Positions 2,679 to 46,207 of a DNA stretch of 64,000 nucleotides are shown here, piece after piece (position 1 is the stretch's first letter; every line of letters starts with the position of its first letter). This DNA comes from a virus: IMG/VR virus record IMGVR_UViG_3300000944_000005, positions 46,039 through 110,038 of that record; one strand, written 5' to 3'. A program made the translations under genes and the position numbers. A model generated the notes under the pieces. The model had not been told where the DNA came from. It searched no databases and worked only from the letters and a program-made list of their open reading frames with translations.

Positions 2679-3756
2679 AATTAACCTTGAACTCTTCGAA
2701 CATTGTAGTGATCTCCGCTTTAGGTTCCGGAGCTTGTAGTAGTCGGCAAGTACCGTTATGGATCGGAGAATCCTTGGTTACCAGTTCACCGACTGCGGAA
2801 ATCAAACTGTCGAAAGCCCCTTCACGAGTAACTGCCTCGTCAATGACTTCAGTTATCTGTTGACGTTGAGGTTCCAAGAACAGATGACAACGATCAGAAA
2901 ATGTCTGGGTAAGACGCTGGTGTGCGTCAGGGATCTCATCAACGAACTTAACTCGAAGGATCGGTTTCTGGATCACCGGATTGTATGGTGTATCAAGACC
3001 ACCAAGTTCGGTACCGGTTACGAAATCTACCAGTTGTTGTTCGTTCTGCAACTCTTTGTAGAAGTAAGGTCGCGTATCGATACTTTCCCAAGTCACGGAT
3101 AGATCGGAGTGAATTACACCGAAACTTTTACGTGGGTCTTCATTCAAAGCTTGCATACAAGTAGAACCTGGTGAGTAGGCTACCACTCTCCCACCATCTG
3201 CGGCCTTACCCTCACAAGTTGTGGTTACGTGATAGTCACCAGTAATCAACGTGATACTAGTAGGTAACATGTCGAATGAACCTTCAGTGATACCAACACC
3301 CTGAATTTCGTCCCAAGATTGGTGCATCACTAACACCAACGGAGATACTTCGGTAAACAAATTGTTGATAGCGTCTTGTAGTTTATCTTTAGGTTGCCAG
3401 TCGATTCCCGCAAACTCAATACCACTAATATTATCTGCACCTAACATGATTACCCAACCATGAAGTTGCGCCCAACTTGGTGTAGCACGATCATGATTAC
3501 CGTCAACTGCGTAGACTCTAAGCGACGCTTGCTGCATCCGATCCATGGCTTTCATGTAACGATCTACTGAAAGCGAATCTGGTCGTACCTTATCGAAAAG
3601 ATCACCAGCTAGAATCAATGGTAGTTGTTCACGTATACAGTACGTTATGATGTAATCCAACGACTCATACGCGTCGTGTTTCAGTTCTGGGTGCTTTGTC
3701 CAGGTTACTGGTCGGAGGTGGAGGTCAGCCGCGAAGGCTGCAATTGGTCGAGCCAT
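2617..3756 (-). CDS. sbcD: SbcD/Mre11-like metallophosphoesterase nuclease
   Basis: Calcineurin-like motifs ADLH, AGDLFD, GNHD, MHQ, GDYH, YSPGS; near the Rad50-like ATPase. Confidence 0.88.
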   Translation of the reverse strand: MARPIAAFAADLHLRPVTWTKHPELKHDAYESLDYIITYCIREQLPLILAGDLFDKVRPDSLSVDRYMKAMDRMQQASLRVYAVDGNHDRATPSWAQLHGWVIMLGADNISGIEFAGIDWQPKDKLQDAINNLFTEVSPLVLVMHQSWDEIQGVGITEGSFDMLPTSITLITGDYHVTTTCEGKAADGGRVVAYSPGSTCMQALNEDPRKSFGVIHSDLSVTWESIDTRPYFYKELQNEQQLVDFVTGTELGGLDTPYNPVIQKPILRVKFVDEIPDAHQRLTQTFSDRCHLFLEPQRQQITEVIDEAVTREGAFDSLISAVGELVTKDSPIHNGTCRLLQAPEPKAEITTMFEEFKVNYAQTQNDSGVPVNDLEKGQT

Positions 3757-13782: not shown

Positions 13783-13855
13783 TACGGGTGGAGGGACTCG
13801 AACCCCCAACTATTGGCTTTGAAAGCCACTACTCTACCAATTGAGTTACACCCGC
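13783..13855 (-). tRNA. tRNA with anticodon UCA (opal suppressor / tRNA-Trp(UCA)-like)
   Basis: Minus strand GCGGGTG TA ACTC AATTGGTA GAGT A GTGGC TTTCAAA GCCAA TAGTT GGGGG TTCGAGT CCCTC CACCCGT A folds as a standard cloverleaf. Anticodon loop is UU-UCA-AA, variable loop is short, CCA is not encoded. Confidence 0.92.
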
Positions 13856-28694: not shown

Positions 28695-28740
28695 CGTTAA
28701 CAACTTTAATTATTTGAGATGGCGTCGAACTGAAACAAAA

Positions 28741-30354
28741 GTCACAATGCACAAAGCCCATTGTAGGCTGTTGAGTGCGAACGCATGCTGTCACAATGTA
28801 CAAAGCCCACTGTAGGCGTTGAAATCACAACGGGTGTCAGATACGCTGTCGTCACAATGTACGAAGCCCACTGTAGGCTGTTGGGATCACCCGCATTCTT
28901 GTCACAATGTACGAAGCCCATCGTAGGCTGTTGAGATCCAACTAATTTGAAGTCACAATGTACGAAGCCCACTGTAGGCTGTTGAGTCTCGGAGTGATGC
29001 TGTTACAAGGGTCACAATGTACGAAGCCCACTGTAGGCGTTGAATCTATTATAGCTTGTCCTTGCCGGTCACAATGAACTAAGCCCATTGTAGGCTGTTG
29101 AGTCACGGAATGGCCACAGTCACAATGTACGAAGCCCACTGTAGGCTGTTGTTGTCGCTCCCTTTCGTCACAATGTACAAAACCCATTGTAGGTGTTGAA
29201 CCTGTTAACTACGAGTCACAATGTACGAAGCCCATTGTAGGCTGTTGTCAATGATGGGGAACCAACTGGTCACATCAAACTAAGCCTGATGTAGGCTGTT
29301 GAGATCATTCGCATTCCGTCACAATGTACGAAGCCCACTGTAGGCTGTTGAGGTAGCGTGAGTCCGCTATCGTTCGACCCACTTTTGACCGAGTCACAAT
29401 GAACTAAGCCCATTGTAGGCTGTTGAGTCGCGGAATGGACGCTGTCACAATGTACGAAGCCCATTGTAGGCAGTTGTGTTAGTTATTTCAGTTTGATGTA
29501 CGAGTCACAATGTACGAAGCCCGTTGTAGGCGTTGAGATAATTGTTTCTTGATGGTCAACGGTCACAATGTACGAAGCCCACTGTAGGCTGTTGGTATCA
29601 GTCCGTCGCACCGGTCACAATGTACGAAGCCCATTGTAAGCTGTTGGCATCACTTAATGGCCGTCACAATGAACGAAGCCCACTGTAGGCTGTTGAGGGT
29701 CAACGCATGCTGTCACAATGTACGAAGCCCACTGTAGGCGTTGGTTTCATTCGGGCCACGTCACAATGTACGAAGCCCACTGTAGGCGTTGGTAGTACTG
29801 AAGTCAAGCATGTCACAATGTACGAAGCCCACTGTAGGCGTTGAGTACTCAATTGCCCAGGTCACAATGTACGAAACCCATTGTAGGTGTTGAATGAATA
29901 GTCACCCCAAAATAGTCACAATGTACGAAGCCCACTGTAGGCGTTGAGATCCAACTAACTCTCGTACTGTCACAATGTACGGAGGCACATTTGAAGTCAC
30001 AATGAACTAAGCCCATTGTAGGCTGTTGAGACTTCAGGTGTAATACTTAATACCAATAACATCTGTCACAATGTACGAAGCCCACTGTAGGCGTTGAATT
30101 TTTGAATTGTTTTCGCCAGTTGGTTACAATGTACTAAGCCCATTGTAGGCTGTTGAGACTTGGTTGAAGATGGCGCCCACAACGTAGTCACAATGTACGA
30201 AGCCCACTGTAGGCGTTGATATTCTGCGACTTGCACAGTCACAATGTACGAAGCCCACTGTAGGCTGTTGACTCAATCGATTCTTTTTGGTGCCCACTCA
30301 ATTACAGGCACACCATCGTCACAATGTACGAAGCCCACTGTAGGCTGTTGAGAC
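28741..30354 (-). CRISPR. CRISPR array: 29 full repeats plus 1 truncated repeat (29969-29981), spacers 15-47 nt
   Basis: Plus-strand core GTCACAATGTACGAAGCCCACTGTAGGC(T)GTTG; likely full minus-strand repeat GTCTCAACAGCCTACAGTGGGCTTCGTACATTGTGAC. Stem AGCCUA/UGGGCU forms only on the minus strand (U.G wobble versus C.A mismatch), which is the same strand as the adjacent cas gene. Confidence 0.95.
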
Positions 30355-30379
30355 CCTACCAGTTCAACCTGGTAGGGTC
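30352..30379. other. perfect 11-bp hairpin abutting the cas-proximal repeat
   Basis: GACCCTACCAG-TTCAAC-CTGGTAGGGTC. Confidence 0.7.
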
Positions 30380-30430
30380 ACACAGTTATAACCATTATTT
30401 ACTAACTTATGTTAACGGTACTTGTCGATT

Positions 30431-32341
30431 TTAGCGACGTTTTGCTTCTGCGAACTCCGTATAAGGAACTGCATCAGGTATCCGCGATAACATAATGTTC
30501 GCGGCGTTGATGTCTTGATCAACTGTGTAGGTACAATGTGAGCAATGATACTCAAGTTTAGCCGAATCCCAATCTTCCGTAACCTGTCCGCAGGTCGAAC
30601 ACGTACGAGTCATGTTGACAGACGTGACAACACTCACATTACTCTGACCGAAAATTTCTACGGCACATTGACGGAGTAAACCGGGAGAAGCGATCCTCGC
30701 TAGTCGCCGTTGGTTAGCCACCAACACAACTTTCTCGTCGTCTTTCTCCTTCTTCCCGAGCGTAGCCCAGTTTGTAGAGTCCACAATCAAATGTGTGTAA
30801 CGACCGGACAACCTGCGTAACCAATCACGGTAAACATGTTTACGATTGCGTATCGCTTTCTTATTGATAGAAGCAGACTCTTGTAAGATATGCCGATCCC
30901 ACGATCGCCAAAATTCCATGATACCAAACACAGTTTGTATGTCGGATGGGTGACGTTTTCTTCTAACTGCAGGGCTATTTAACTTTGACTCTGCCCAAGG
31001 TAGTGAGTTAGTAAAGAACTGCGCTGAAGTTTCAGTATCCATCACAAACCGATTATCTCGCCAGAGTTCTACTGTTCGATATAACGATTCTGGAGATTGG
31101 TGACTAGCTAGTGTCTGAGTACGTTCAACCAACCATTCAGGTACATCGATACTGGCTAACCAGTCAAGGAATTCACCTCTTATGATGTTGAACCGATCGG
31201 CGCGAATTCCTTGTAACGAATCTGGTCTAGAGAATCGGCGAAGTTTATCACTGGATAGAAATAGTTGACTAACTTGCTGCGTAGCATCCATTACTGTGGC
31301 ACACCGTAACTGTTCATCAATCATGCGATGACCCAGGTGTAACACACAGGTATTGGATTTATCAACTGTCGAAACAACATCATCAACTTTGATTGTGAGT
31401 CGTATCTCCCAGTACTCCTTTTTACCCACACGTTTCAGATGTGCGAACCCATCAATGATTTTCGCACTTGCGGGGAAGTCACGATGATGCACATAAGGGA
31501 AAGTAGCAAATACAGGATTACCGTCGTCGTCACGGCACACGAGGAAACGTATTGTACCTTTCGCAACCTCTCCGCGATCTTGACCAATAACAAGTCGTTC
31601 GCTCCCTGGTGGGATGTGGATGTGTAGAATTTCAGAGTTGTTTTCCATTACTGCAGCTACTGGTTTACCTCCTTGAAACCTTACTCCGATAGCTCCACTA
31701 CCTTCCCAACGACGGAACTTAGGCGGTGGACCTTTTTTGTAAGTTTTTTCCGCAATCTGTTCCATGATTCTGGAGGTACCCCAGTAAACACCAGATTGCT
31801 GTCGCGCAATTTTAGCTTCACGTGCGTGGGCTATTTGTCCATCATCTAAACCGGCTTCCTCCACCAGTTCAAAATAACGCACCTTTCGCTGACGCTTTAA
31901 CTGAGACTCAGTTTCATCAGCTAACTGAGTGATCTCCTGGGCAGCTTGATCTTGATAAACCTTATGTGCATCTCGAATCAATTTCTTCGCAACTTTGTAT
32001 GCGGCATCTAGTTGTGCGATCGCTGTTTTTCTTACAGCTTTGGCTTGATTGATTCTAGCTTTTTGTGAATCAGTAGGTTCATGACGACGACGAGCTCGTT
32101 GACGTGAAAGACGTAAATCTTTATAGGCCTCATCAAGTTCGGCAACTGCCCGATCGTAGATTGTTACAGCATCTGCGTAAGCTGGGCACAAAGATGCAGC
32201 TAACGTTTTGTAAGTAGCACGCCGATTATGCTCTAACTCGATTAATTGATTACGGTAGCGGTGGTTGAGTAAGATTTGATTCTTAACCGCTGCAACATTT
32301 GTTGGTTCTTCAGAACGGTACACCCAGTTAATCACTGGCAT
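30431..32341 (-). CDS. cas12m: type V-M (V-U1/C2c4) CRISPR effector Cas12m-like, with non-canonical RuvC
   Basis: 636 aa, adjacent to the array. Motifs match those recalled for Cas12m: long Arg-rich coiled coil, YWGT, RRWEGSGAIGVRFQ, VHHR, RuvC-I VLHLGHR (D to H), RuvC-II IVDST (E to D), SPGLLR, TRTCSTCG...CSHC zinc ribbon and RuvC-III DQDINAA. Confidence 0.85.
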   Translation of the reverse strand: MPVINWVYRSEEPTNVAAVKNQILLNHRYRNQLIELEHNRRATYKTLAASLCPAYADAVTIYDRAVAELDEAYKDLRLSRQRARRRHEPTDSQKARINQAKAVRKTAIAQLDAAYKVAKKLIRDAHKVYQDQAAQEITQLADETESQLKRQRKVRYFELVEEAGLDDGQIAHAREAKIARQQSGVYWGTSRIMEQIAEKTYKKGPPPKFRRWEGSGAIGVRFQGGKPVAAVMENNSEILHIHIPPGSERLVIGQDRGEVAKGTIRFLVCRDDDGNPVFATFPYVHHRDFPASAKIIDGFAHLKRVGKKEYWEIRLTIKVDDVVSTVDKSNTCVLHLGHRMIDEQLRCATVMDATQQVSQLFLSSDKLRRFSRPDSLQGIRADRFNIIRGEFLDWLASIDVPEWLVERTQTLASHQSPESLYRTVELWRDNRFVMDTETSAQFFTNSLPWAESKLNSPAVRRKRHPSDIQTVFGIMEFWRSWDRHILQESASINKKAIRNRKHVYRDWLRRLSGRYTHLIVDSTNWATLGKKEKDDEKVVLVANQRRLARIASPGLLRQCAVEIFGQSNVSVVTSVNMTRTCSTCGQVTEDWDSAKLEYHCSHCTYTVDQDINAANIMLSRIPDAVPYTEFAEAKRR

Positions 32342-37926: not shown

Positions 37927-40900
37927 ATGACGTCGATTCAAACAGTAAGTAAAACATCAGCTATATCGACTGCTGATGTTGGTAAGATCCTCACCGCGAT
38001 CACCGCGGATAAGGTATCAGGGCGTAAACAAAGTAACGTCGACCGAATTGTACAGATCCGGAAACTTGCGCAACAAGGGGGAATGCATACACTGGAACCG
38101 CTTCTCCCGTTGTGTTTAACACTGCAAGGAGAACCGTACGAATTATCGGATCACTTCCCATTCTCACCTGTGTTCCATACGACAATGCCGTCGTCACTGG
38201 TTCTAAAAACTGGCCGGCAGGTTTCGAAATGCGTCCGAAAAAACTCAGTGTTCAACCGTGTCTACGACCAGTACGGTCGACGTAACCGGTTGGAGGATTT
38301 AACACCGGGTCAACTGGTGCAATCTCTGGACATCAAAACTTTTCGATCAGGTAACCGTGAGGTCCTATTTCAACATCGCAACCCGACCAAAACCTGTTAC
38401 TTCATTCGTACCCGTAGGGGTGTCGAAATGGAGTTGGCTGGTACTCATCCGCTGTACACGTACAACGGGTGGACCACAGTGGGTGATCTTGATGTAGGTG
38501 ATCGCATCATTCACGTTCGTCAGGGTGGGAAGTTCGGACGTAAGAAAGTTGATGACCGGCGTATTCGTGTCACAGCCTACATGCTGGGTGATGGGTCTTT
38601 TCGCGGTAGTTACAGTTTTACGGCTAACCGCGAGACAAGCGCCCTTACGGAGATGCGAAGCCTACTTCAAGACTTCAGGGAGTACCCAAAATCAGAGAGT
38701 AAGGCGACTAGTCTTTGCGTTAATCACGACCATGTAATCTACGACTGGTCGCGTGAGGATAACTTACATGGCAAACTATCACACGAGAAATATATTCCGG
38801 ATTGGGTGTTCTTGTTACCACGTGTTAGTACTCGTACGTTTATTGAGCGACTGTGGGCAACCGACGGAATGGTTAAACTGCATAAGTCCAAAGCAACAAT
38901 TTCGTACACGTCTACGTCCCGAGAACTTGTTTACGATCTCAAGTCATTACTTTCAAAGTTCGGTATTCCGACGTCAGTTAAAGAGAGAACTGGTGCTTAC
39001 AAGAAGCCTGACGGGAGGAAAGTTAAATGTCGGCAATACTGGGTACTCCGCGTGGAGACTTTAGCAGGTTGGCGGACGTTTATGTCGGAGTTCAATGTAC
39101 CCGATAAACCAGGATTCGCGTTACCTGAACGAGAACCCAACAACAACCGATACACGACACCGGTTGAAATCGGTGAGCTTATCAGTGATATTGCGGGTGA
39201 GTGTAGAGGTACTAGTAAAACTGCACTCTTACAGTACGGGCTAAGGAAGAAACCAAAGTACCCGCCGTCACGGGCTAAGATGCGACGTTATTTGGATTTC
39301 TTTCAGGCGTATCGTCCAGACCATCCGAGACTAGGTGAGTTTTCGAAATATGTTGACCGATGTGTAGATTGGGACGAGATCGTAGAGATCCGAAATATCG
39401 GTAAACACGAGTGTATCGACATAGAGGTAGCGGATACTCACAACTACTTACTGGACGGCGTAGCCGCACACAATTCGACGTCACTCGCGTCACACGGCGT
39501 GATGCTGGCGAATTGCATCCCCTTTTTTCGAACCCTGTATGTGACTCCACTTTACGAACAGATCCGCCGCTTCTCCAATAATTATGTAAGACCGTTTATT
39601 GATCGCTCACCGATCAAACCTTTATGGTCCGGTACCTCAACAGAGAACTCAGTTCTTCAACGTTCATTCAAGAACTTGTCGATGATGATTTTCTCTTTCG
39701 CATTGATGGATGCGGATCGTGTTCGTGGTATCTCCGCTGATAAAGTTGCGATCGACGAAGTCCAGGACATGGATCCTGATCACCTCCCGATTATTCGTGA
39801 GGTTATGTCACACTCCAAATACGGGTTGTTTCAATTCACCGGGGTCTTGGCCCCGTCCTTTGGTTAGGGCGGGGCCAAGGCCTTGAACATGTAACTCCAA
39901 AATCTTTGGACAACCCTCTCGAAGGTCTCTTCCGTAGATCGTCACAAGCAGAGTGGTTCATCCCATGTCATGCATGTGGTAAGGATAACATCCCGACAAT
40001 CGAGTTTCATATTGATGCGATGATCGGTCCGTATCATGACGAGATTTCAGAGAACTGTCCGGCAACAATTTGTTACAACTGTCGTCGTCCGATCTTTCCT
40101 CGTCAAGGTCGTTGGGTTCATCGTTACCCGCAGCGGCGTTGGAAGATGGCTGGGTATCATGTACCTCAGATCATCATGCCGTTGCACTACAGTTCACCAG
40201 ACAAGTGGGCGACGTTGTTAGCTAAACGGGAGGGTTGGGGTAACACAACTCAAGCGATGTTCTACAACGAAGTCTTGGGTGAGTCTGTCGATGCGGGGCA
40301 GAAGCTTATCTCAGAATCGGAACTACGTGGCGCTGCAAGTCTTCCGTGGAAGAACAACCCAGATGATCCTAGTCGTCTGATGACTGACCGTCTTCAACAT
40401 TACACCAAACGTGTGTTGTCTGTTGACTGGGGTGGTGGCGGTGAAGACGGTACTTCGTTTACAGCACTTTCGTTGTTGGGTATGACACCTACTGGGCAGA
40501 TCCACGTACTTTGGGGTAAACGATTAATCGTCTCACAGGAGCATTTACGTGAAGCTCGTGAAGTGTTTCACTGGTTCCGTGTGTTCAATTGTCACTTGAT
40601 GGCACATGACTATACCGGAGCCGGTACAGTACGTGAGACTGTTATGGTACAGGCCGGTATATCCTTAGACAGTGTGATGGCGATGCGGTTAGTACGATCA
40701 GCATCTGCAGGTTTGGTGACATTCAAACCACCGACTCCGATTCATCCGCGTCAGCACTACAATATTGATAAGACGAGAACGTTACTCTACACATTCCAAG
40801 CGATCAAACTTAAATTGATTCAGACGTTCTCGTACGACTATGTAAATGACGACAACCCAGGCCTTCTCTCCGACTTCCTTGCGTTAGTCGAAGAGAAAGC

Positions 40901-41138
40901 TGAGAGTCGTTTGTCTAGCGACATTTATACGATCACACGTAACCCGATGTTAACTGATGACTTTGCTCAGGCAGTTAACTTAGGTTGTGCGGCGTTGTGG
41001 CACTCTGAAGGTCGTTGGCCGAACTTTGCAGAGGCCGCAGCTATTGGTCGCGTGACCAACAGTCAGATCCTGGCAGCAGGAAATACTGATTATGGCTGGA
41101 ATGAAGATCGCCGAGGCGGGTTCTTCAATATGCCTTAA
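37927..41138 (+). CDS. terL: large terminase subunit (gpA-like), with an intein and split by a 50-nt frame-breaking hairpin at 39844-39893
   Basis: KTGRQVSK|ST Walker A, RVRGISAD, IDEVQD Walker B, FQFTG|TPKS, CHACG/CYNC Zn, FYNEVLG and VDWG nuclease motif. Confidence 0.85.
38230..39474 (+). mobile_element. intein (415 aa) with LAGLIDADG homing endonuclease, inserted in the terminase Walker A
   Basis: Starts at C (K|CVRKNS) and ends HN followed by S (AAHN|STS); HPLYT block B; LAGLIDADG-like YMLGDGS and LWATDGMV. Confidence 0.93.
39844..39893 (+). other. 50-nt GC-rich hairpin coding gap in terL
   Basis: GTCTTGGCCCCGTCCT-TTGGTT-AGGGCGGGGCCAAGGC stem (16+ bp) with an in-frame TAG; removing it joins FQFTG to TPKSLDN. 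Confidence 0.75.
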
Positions 41139-45015: not shown

Positions 45016-46207
45016 GAGTCAAGTTATAACCGATCACACGCAGGATCTTACAGGTAGTGAACAATATCGACTGACCCAGCTTTATCAACCACCGGGGTTC
45101 GTGAAGCAAGCCAGTCATGAACAGCTCTGCGGCGGACCTGAACAAATTCCGCAGCATCTCTACGCAGATCCTCGTAACCGTAACTTTCCTTGTCATACCA
45201 AGGCTGCTACGTGGATGTCCGCACTGTTCTTCGGGGATGTACGCAAAAGTCTTGACCCAGAAGTGGCCGAGACTGTTGCAACAAAACTTATCAAGACCGC
45301 AGGATACTGGAAGATCAGCCCCGAGGTAACAGAACTTTGGGAAAAGATGGCACAAGATGAAGCCCAAGGTCAACCGCGTCTGGCGGATTCGGACTTTGCA
45401 TTCGTGTGGCAGGCCGGTGACCAGAAAGAGCGACATTACCCATTACGTAATCCAACTGAGGTAAAAATGGCGTCTCACTGGTTCGGTGAGCACCATGATC
45501 AGTTCAATTTTGAAGACAAGCATACTGTGGCTCGTAAGATCCTAGTCAAAGCTAGTCAGATGGGCGCCGTTGTTGACAACCAGGAGCTCCTGGATCGTTG
45601 TGCTGGTTTTGGTTATTGCTCGTCAGAAGATGCAGCAAAGGCCTGGGACAAGCGAGCACACTTACTTCAATCTAGTCATCCCGAGTACTCTAATGAAGCG
45701 GTGAAAGTTGCAACTTCATTACGTAGTGCTACTTTTGAAGCACGTGATCAAGGTAGGCGGATCAAGATGGCTGGGTTGATGGGTCAATTCGATCAACAAA
45801 CTCATTTGAATCGGTTGTACGATGACGGCCTTGAACGACCAGAAGACGTACTATTTCAGATTACTGAGAAAGTAGCTTCTGAGTTCTTACAAAGTAACGT
45901 CACAACCACCACAGGCGCCATCTACGAAAAGATGGCCCTGGAGCGGTTGGACATTGAAACAGTTCGTTCGTGGCTTGGTGACGACCTTGCTGAAGCCTGT
46001 GGTGGAATCAGTATGGACGTGGAGAAGTTGGCAGAAATTCTACCAACCCTCCCTCGTCCCGACGCCGAGATGTTCGAACGGATGGCACAAGCAGCTGGTA
46101 TCTCAGTTTACGCTCGCGAGAAGTCTGCTGCCGATCGCGGGATGTCACTGGATGAGATGCGGGCAGCAGCTAAGCAGTACAAACCGACAGAACAACCGAC
46201 ACTTTAA
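45014..46207 (+). CDS. hypothetical protein (possibly virion or morphogenesis)
   Basis: 397-aa ORF with GGAGG SD; recurring KxA(S) peptides. Confidence 0.7.
   Translation: MSQVITDHTQDLTGSEQYRLTQLYQPPGFVKQASHEQLCGGPEQIPQHLYADPRNRNFPCHTKAATWMSALFFGDVRKSLDPEVAETVATKLIKTAGYWKISPEVTELWEKMAQDEAQGQPRLADSDFAFVWQAGDQKERHYPLRNPTEVKMASHWFGEHHDQFNFEDKHTVARKILVKASQMGAVVDNQELLDRCAGFGYCSSEDAAKAWDKRAHLLQSSHPEYSNEAVKVATSLRSATFEARDQGRRIKMAGLMGQFDQQTHLNRLYDDGLERPEDVLFQITEKVASEFLQSNVTTTTGAIYEKMALERLDIETVRSWLGDDLAEACGGISMDVEKLAEILPTLPRPDAEMFERMAQAAGISVYAREKSAADRGMSLDEMRAAAKQYKPTEQPTL

Follow-up and report, generated by a model that had tools for sequence, protein, structure and literature searches.

A large marine phage carries a type V-M CRISPR locus with a predicted DNase-dead Cas12m and miniature spacers

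Locus organization and carrier

The locus described here lies in a 64,000-nucleotide (nt) stretch of viral DNA (positions 46,039 to 110,038 of the IMG/VR record IMGVR_UViG_3300000944_000005; this whole stretch is referred to below as the window). It consists of a gene for a 636-residue protein, which we call cas12m, and a CRISPR array that begins 80 bases downstream of it on the same strand (Table 1). An initial annotation, made from the letters of the DNA alone, had placed the gene directly upstream of a same-strand array of 30 repeats, and its coordinates and counts were confirmed by our analysis. The virus record is a single linear contig of 155,625 bp with 47% G+C; it is itself a metagenome assembly, the probable source run being an algae-associated metagenome, and CheckV estimates its completeness at about 75%. 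PHROG matches within the window include a DNA ligase, a ribonucleotide reductase and a large terminase that is matched in two parts. The carrier is a large marine phage, and no resemblance at the DNA level to any cultured phage was found. Profiles for Cas1, Cas2 and Cas4 (PF01867, PF09827 and PF01930) had no match anywhere in the 155,625-bp record, so that the earlier remark that cas1, cas2 and cas4 are missing from the window applies to all of the ~75% of the genome that was recovered.

Table 1. Features of the Cas12m locus, in coordinates of the window
Feature	Position	Strand	Basis
cas12m gene, 636 aa (P0001)	30431..32341	-	Open reading frame; phmmer, AlphaFold2, Foldseek, motif columns
Leader between the cas12m stop codon and repeat 1	30351..30430	-	Sequence
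CRISPR array, 30 repeats: 29 full (32/33 nt) and one 5'-truncated	28741..30350	-	Sequence
Spacers 1-3 (47, 19 and 31 nt) and the two repeats between them	30156..30317	-	Sequence
Broken unit: 8-nt spacer 6 (29988-29995) and repeat 7 without its 5' half (29969-29987)	29969..29995	-	Sequence
Repeat 20, with both partners altered in three stem pairs (ACAGTG/CATTGT to ACATCA/TGATGT), helix kept	29269..29301	-	Repeat comparison

A Cas12m protein with a His-Asp-Asp active site

Judged by its sequence and its predicted structure, the 636-residue protein is a genuine Cas12m (type V-M). A phmmer search of the PDB returned 23vw_A Cas12m (7e-37), 8hhl_A Cas12m2 (8.4e-16), 8pm4_A GoCas12m (2.5e-13) and 23vu_A UnCas12m4a (5.9e-09). 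Pfam recognized solely the zinc-finger (TNB) domain PF07282, and the match to the NCBIfam TnpB models was confined to the C-terminal ~50 residues and fell far under the cut-offs. An AlphaFold2 model computed from 30 homologues (predicted local distance difference test score 90.8, predicted template-modelling score 0.82) has long N-terminal helices at residues 16-137 and shows the arrangement expected of Cas12m, with a WED domain, coiled-coil REC1/REC2 and a RuvC domain with an inserted zinc-finger TNB. The structural comparison with MmCas12m that had been proposed as a check on the initial annotation came out in favor of that family, as Foldseek placed 8hhl_A Cas12m2 at the top with a template-modelling (TM) score of 0.72/0.77, with 8pm4_A GoCas12m at 0.71/0.74, and the next family was Cas12f with a best TMq of 0.34. 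A cutting protein of the TnpB/Cas12f kind was considered as an alternative identity and is opposed by the active-site triad described below, by the TMq of at most 0.34 as against 0.72 for Cas12m2, and by the non-compact fold.

The RuvC motifs that had been noted earlier as non-canonical (VLHLGHR, IVDST and DQDINAA) are present at residues 333-339, 518-523 (LIVDST) and 608-614. Residues H335, D521 and D610 within them align with LHLGWR, LVDDT and DQD of Cas12m2, that is with H317/D485/D579 of that enzyme. In Cas12m2 this His-Asp-Asp (H-D-D) triad binds only one magnesium ion, which explains the missing cleavage of double-stranded DNA (Omura et al., PMC10442227), and cleavage was not found for Cas12m variants with D-E-D, H-D-D or N-D-D triads (Bigelyte et al., PMC11013384). 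Because its H-D-D triad is that of the non-cutting MmCas12m2, the phage protein is predicted by homology to be DNase-dead. The description of the protein as Cas12m-like and predicted DNase-dead is thus supported by homology in sequence, predicted structure and triad. A His-Arg pair of the phage protein also aligns with the His-Arg pair with which Cas12m2 reads C(-1) of the repeat.

A full HMMER scan gave 2,662 homologues, the closest only 35% identical; a word-index protein search recovered the query alone. Within the clade of the phage protein the zinc-finger cysteines C581, C584, C600 and C603 are invariant and R287 is nearly so. RuvC site I is a histidine in 22 of the 23 closest aligned homologues, and D-E-D occurs in more distant ones. 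At site II (the column of residue 521) most of these 23 carry a non-acidic residue (Ala, Pro, Gly, Ser or Val), and such homologues lie further from a working triad than the H-D-D, N-D-D and D-E-D classes described so far.

Array layout and miniature spacers

The repeat has the consensus CAAC(A)GCCTACAGTGGGCTTCGTACATTGTGAC. Taking CAAC as the start of the repeat gives 28 intact spacers whose lengths range over 15-47 nt around a median of 19.5, 18 of them being 22 nt or shorter and six exactly 16 nt; the figures given before (28 intact spacers, 15-47 nt, median of about 20, 18 of 28 at 22 nt or less, six of 16 nt) are thereby reproduced. The bases (C/T)T on the 5' side of CAAC are partly conserved, and counting them as repeat makes the spacers 2-3 nt shorter, close to the 2-4 nt allowed earlier for eroded repeat bases. 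The length of a unit from one repeat end to the next is independent of the repeat start that is assumed, and by this measure the minimum is 48 nt (three units), five units have 49 nt, and 15 of the 28 fall between 48 and 52 nt. The five spacers nearest to cas12m (spacers 1-5, down to 30029) average 31.8 nt and the other 23 average 20.8 nt (Mann-Whitney p = 0.007, for a split picked after the data had been seen).

Two places in the array depart from the regular layout. One is the broken unit listed in Table 1, and the other is spacer 26 (28934-28951), which reads as a fusion between spacer 6 and the 3' portion of spacer 7. Both look like the footprints of deletions over the junction between the 3' part of a spacer and the 5' part of the following repeat. 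The array also holds four spacer families (12 and 29; 17 and 23; 19 and 27; 6 plus 7 and 26; all within 28774-29995). In the duplicated units the spacers differ by 22-25% and the flanking repeats by 3-5%. Within each of the pairs 12/29, 17/23 and 19/27 the two members are equal in length, so the shortening must have preceded the duplication.

A conserved repeat scaffold

All repeats end in AC when read in the direction of cas12m. The CRISPR RNA (crRNA) of Cas12m2 has A(-2) and C(-1) at the corresponding positions (PMC10442227). We predict transcription of the array in the same direction as cas12m, since this brings the 3' end of the repeat, ...GAC, next to the spacer as in that crRNA. From -28 to -1 of the repeat, almost all columns reach a conservation of 90% or more, and conservation drops on the 5' side of the invariant CAAC, where the flanking bases are variable and a one-base insertion or deletion occurs. 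Two crossing helices can be drawn, one pairing positions -28 to -26 with -18 to -16 and the other -24 to -19 with -9 to -4. Across the copies of the array 99.3% of the helix cells are paired and four pairs are altered on both sides; no shuffle or slid register attains the observed pairing values. These helices resemble the pseudoknot and stem of Cas12m2 and PmCas12m, and the pattern of changes suggests that the scaffold is under selection. A search of both strands of the phage genome for a further repeat copy or an anti-repeat found none, nor any scattered solitary copies.

The leader contains a hairpin at 30352-30379 with a perfect 11-bp stem (GACCCTACCAG / CTGGTAGGGTC), and the hairpin stops a single base short of repeat 1. 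Comparable hairpins precede the first repeat in two related loci, L044 (about 3428-3462) and L047 (about 3216-3233). The element may serve to terminate or attenuate transcription after cas12m, or it may belong to the leader or take part in processing; prediction of sigma-70 promoters and of terminators in the leader gave nothing convincing, and Rfam had no match between 28000 and 33000 of the window.

Recurrence of the short spacers in other assemblies and strains

Since the record is a metagenome assembly, and since the array fragments into many small contigs in every run compared, the short spacers might in principle be an artefact of repeat collapse or misjoining during short-read assembly. 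Collapse, however, removes whole units and would not shorten spacers. Independent contigs from the probable source run match the window exactly over repeat-spacer-repeat segments that include 16-, 17- and 22-nt spacers. Marine metagenomes of a second study contain a cas12m gene 95-99% identical to that of the window, together with array pieces in which spacers 12 and 19 (16 nt each) and spacer 20 (21 nt) recur, differently ordered, as well as an additional 22-nt spacer that is absent from the window. Contigs from two studies therefore span 16-, 17-, 21- and 22-nt spacers from repeat to repeat, and this recurrence makes an assembly collapse, which the initial annotation had named as something that would refute its reading, very unlikely, to the point that we regard its probability as close to negligible.

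The reordered units indicate that the array recombines or rearranges between strains. In the marine strains the trailer end of the array differs in sequence (reads over 28716-29896), whereas the flanking genes are 95-99% identical. Among the 26 listed differences between the cas12m gene of the window and those of the marine strains 21 are synonymous and 5 non-synonymous, which points to purifying selection on the gene. A variant of spacer 11, 16 nt long, was also seen in a marine strain.

Related Cas12m loci

Eight metagenome loci (L002-L005, L007, L011, L044 and L047) encode Cas12m proteins of the same clade, with 31-38% identity to the phage protein. Several of them adjoin phage structural genes (tape measure, capsid and portal), and in most the array starts right after the cas12m gene. 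The related repeats share the framework CAA(C/T)GCC...GGCTT...GAGAC, and this framework or its ends was present in the four related arrays examined. In the multi-unit relatives (L002-L005 and L011) the modal unit is 71-73 nt, equivalent to spacers of 35-38 nt. Short units number one or two per related array and always lie in the distal half: the last unit in L002, the 5th and 7th of 7 in L005, and the 7th and 8th of 9 in L011. The distal parts of the related arrays are visibly degenerate. A more distant case is Virus Rctr197k (KX853510.1, L001 4914-8330), a 197-kb phage record with a Cas12m-like gene labelled 'similar to transposase' and an annotated CRISPR in which the repeats are 36 nt and the spacers 35-40 nt long, with a single short unit at its far end.

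Further copies of the system were sought more widely. A search for related loci in IMG/VR found none, and the 19-nt repeat core had no match there. The single metagenome match of that core lies inside a coding sequence and was discarded as chance. A degenerate repeat pattern run over GTDB genomes gave 19 single, non-arrayed matches, a number that fits chance.

Because relatives in the same repeat family keep spacers of 35-38 nt, the miniature state is a derived one; it is extreme in this phage and is not general in the clade. The same comparison bears on the possibility that the spacers were acquired short, through an unusual adaptation process, for example one that uses an integrase of the host or of the missing part of the phage genome with a short ruler. 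The 22-nt spacer found in another strain but not in the window could be read in this way, and a quarter of the genome is missing. The spacer lengths, however, form a continuous range from 15 to 47 nt and do not gather at a single ruler length, erosion has affected the repeats at their 5' ends along with the spacers, and relatives in the same repeat family hold 35-38-nt spacers, so that we consider short acquisition very improbable.

The initial annotation had explained the short spacers by an effector that never cuts, which would have allowed them to shrink. As a contributing factor this is plausible, given the 17-bp heteroduplex and the 17-nt optimum of other Cas12m proteins (see below), but it is not sufficient, since relatives with a dead RuvC and a histidine at site I keep spacers of 35-38 nt. 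The proximate cause of the short spacers looks instead like erosion by deletion in this lineage.

Target searches

When the first 16 nt of each spacer were compared with the phage's own 155.6 kb at two or fewer mismatches, five scattered matches without a common flank were found, about two being expected by estimate. Exact seeds of 11-13 nt matched the phage genome no more commonly than shuffled seeds did, so self-regulation is not supported, and none of the seeds matched the cas12m region. BLAST with the whole array gave just noise at E = 2-6 against 50,697 phage records and nothing against 72,556 plasmids, and the long spacers 1, 18 and 5, searched as exact 21-mers, had zero matches in IMG/VR. 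Against about 1,200 genomes from three bacterial classes the array gave 4, 2 and 9 matches at E <= 0.02 per genome, for a chance expectation of about 8 matches per 400 genomes.

Interpretation

The amount of guide that a Cas12m uses is central to our interpretation. Even when its guide has 20 nt, Cas12m2 forms a heteroduplex of only 17 bp (PMC10442227), and for PmCas12m 17-nt spacers are optimal and matches are required through about position 14 (preprint 10.64898/2026.03.26.714355). Because Cas12m pairs with about 17 nt of its guide, the 3' part of a ~36-nt spacer would be dispensable, and because no adaptation genes were seen, little or no supply of new full-length spacers is to be expected. 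We infer an absence of cleavage, a mechanism of erosion, short guides that still work and a biological role, which together amount to a working, binding-only phage type V-M system whose spacers have been eroded by deletion to roughly the functional minimum. We give this reading a probability of roughly 60%.

By homology with the characterized proteins, the effector would bind double-stranded DNA flanked by a protospacer-adjacent motif (PAM) under the guidance of a crRNA, without cutting it, and would thereby block transcription or replication. Each unit of the array would yield a crRNA in which the spacer comes after a pseudoknot handle formed by roughly the last 28 nt of the repeat. The dispensable zone would then run from about spacer position 18 onward to the conserved handle of the next repeat and would include the 5' few bases of that repeat. 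Deletions across this zone would accumulate, taking the units from ~72 nt to the 48-nt floor and the spacers to 15-18 nt, and the spacers that remain would still be long enough to guide binding. The array would additionally evolve through duplication and reshuffling of its units. Deletions limited to the dispensable zone should leave behind intact handles and spacer 5' parts, eroded repeat 5' ends and an abrupt lower limit to unit length, here 48 nt, which is the combination observed. The irregular units fit the same process, the broken unit 6/7 as a deletion that went too far and spacer 26 as a fusion. Going by the functions of other type V-M systems, silencing of competing mobile elements or of host genes would be the likely use.

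A number of observations weigh against this reading. The target searches turned up no protospacer, whether in the phage's own genome or in the collections covered, and no PAM could be derived. Transcription and processing of the array are themselves predictions. The floor shifts with the repeat start that is assumed, and with a 36-nt repeat the shortest spacers would be 12-13 nt, less than the ~14 nt that PmCas12m needs. The related locus L005 has a 45-nt unit, which is under the 48-nt floor. Over the whole array spacer length and position are related by a weak gradient (Spearman rho -0.31, p = 0.11). The broken unit and the 22-25% divergence between duplicated spacers would also fit the drift of unused sequence. 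Finally, with about 75% of the genome at hand, adaptation genes could lie in the missing part.

Some of these points would be expected if the locus were a decaying relic, in which the short spacers are non-functional debris of random deletion, guide length is not selected, and Cas12m is kept for another reason or transiently. The negative target searches, the absence of adaptation genes from the record, the truncated repeat with its 8-nt spacer and the degenerate distal ends of the related arrays can all be taken in this sense. Decay of this kind is difficult to reconcile with 29 full repeats that keep positions -28 to -1 nearly unchanged and whose helix changes are compensated, with the 21 synonymous and 5 non-synonymous differences that indicate purifying selection on cas12m, with unit lengths that stop sharply at 48 nt without a tail, or with the persistence of the same short units in other strains. 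We regard a relic as unlikely, although it deserves serious consideration.

The floor near the length of a functional 17-nt guide raises a different question, which is whether short guides were themselves selected. The array would in that case be a dense multiplex array for CRISPR interference, with about 29 guides in 1.6 kb, that represses host, defence or competitor genes and diversifies by duplication, recombination and point mutation rather than through Cas1-Cas2. The initial annotation had proposed a multi-target repressor of this general kind. The four spacer families described above, in which spacers differ by 22-25% and repeats by 3-5%, and the change of array content between strains whose cas12m genes are 95-99% identical are in keeping with such diversification. 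On the other hand, no target was found and no consistent PAM derived, the seeds match the phage genome no more than chance predicts, relatives manage with 36-nt spacers, and neutral erosion bounded by purifying selection on guide and handle suffices to account for the lengths. Selection for minimal guides is in our opinion improbable, and erosion by deletion down to a functional minimum is the interpretation that we prefer.

Type V-M systems, the H-D-D site and the effective guide length of 17 nt were known already, and a phage Cas12m has been described in a 2026 myxophage preprint. The novelty lies in how far the spacers of a long and otherwise well-preserved array have shrunk, and in the fact that this state persists across separate marine samples. 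If the preferred interpretation is true, this array is a natural case of spacer length converging on the length that the effector uses (~17 nt), and it would imply that spacer length is set by the adaptation machinery and, without that machinery, drifts down to what the effector requires. Should native guides of 15-18 nt work, the array would also offer a template for compact multiplex Cas12m arrays in which each guide takes up about 48 nt. Minimum spacer settings of ~23-25 nt are frequent with common CRISPR finders, so that arrays like this one are probably missed and phage type V-M systems may be under-counted. A minSL of 25 was set, for example, in PMC12607003. The Rctr197k gene, under its label 'similar to transposase', seems to show that phage-borne type V-M has sat unrecognized in databases.

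Other features of the window

The gene upstream of cas12m encodes a 240-residue protein without a Pfam or PHROG match, and it is not conserved beside related cas12m genes. The terminase gene is split or interrupted: positions 87-188 of PHROG 675 are matched at the end of the open reading frame at 37927-39867 and positions 201-551 in that at 39906-41138. The sole tRNA of the window (13783-13855) has a UCA anticodon and is labelled tRNA-SeC by ARAGORN; an earlier reader saw in it a possible opal suppressor. For the HldE-like protein of the phage a close genomic relative was not found.

Comparison with known systems

Like the cutting TnpB and Cas12f families, the protein has a zinc-finger domain inserted into its RuvC domain (Pfam PF07282). 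It differs from them in lacking D-E-D, with a histidine for the first aspartate and an aspartate for the glutamate, in its TMq of at most 0.34, and in having the coiled-coil REC insertion of Cas12m; nor is a long guide-RNA scaffold region evident.

There is a close likeness to the H-D-D type V-M systems, MmCas12m2 (PDB 8hhl/8hio) and GoCas12m (8pm4). Common to all are the fold (TM 0.71-0.77), the His-Asp-Asp triad, the cysteine-rich zinc finger, a repeat that ends in AC, a scaffold of pseudoknot plus stem, and the absence of adaptation genes (here in a record that is ~75% complete). DNA binding without cutting is established for the known proteins (PMC10442227, PMC11013384) and would by homology extend to the phage protein. 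Identity over the structural alignment is just about 19-20%. The present locus is on a large marine phage, whereas theirs are on a plasmid or chromosome, and type V-M systems are in general enriched on plasmids and present in some prophages (PMC11656645). The repeat core here is 32-33 nt and eroded at its 5' side, and most spacers are 15-22 nt as against about 36 nt. The related metagenome loci of the same clade (L002-L005, L007, L011, L044 and L047) differ in RuvC site II, which is mostly non-acidic in them and an aspartate in the phage protein.

Phage-borne relatives in a wider sense are Rctr197k and the MvCas12m of myxophage MV-1 (preprint 10.64898/2026.09.14.751636), both of which have a Cas12m-type gene beside a CRISPR array without cas1, cas2 or cas4. 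The Rctr197k protein is 24% identical to the one described here and its spacers are 35-40 nt long, while MV-1 has a D-E-D triad and eight spacers; miniature spacers are described for neither.

Natural uses of a short guide for binding only include the 17-nt delocalised crRNA of type V-K transposons and the scaRNA of Francisella. The tracr-L and cr-like regulatory RNAs are further cases (preprint 10.1101/2023.03.03.530964). In all of these, complementarity of ~11-17 nt steers binding without cleavage, as we propose for the phage array. They differ from it in that each employs a single dedicated guide with a conserved target, often its own promoter or attachment site, whereas the phage carries ~29 short units in one array.

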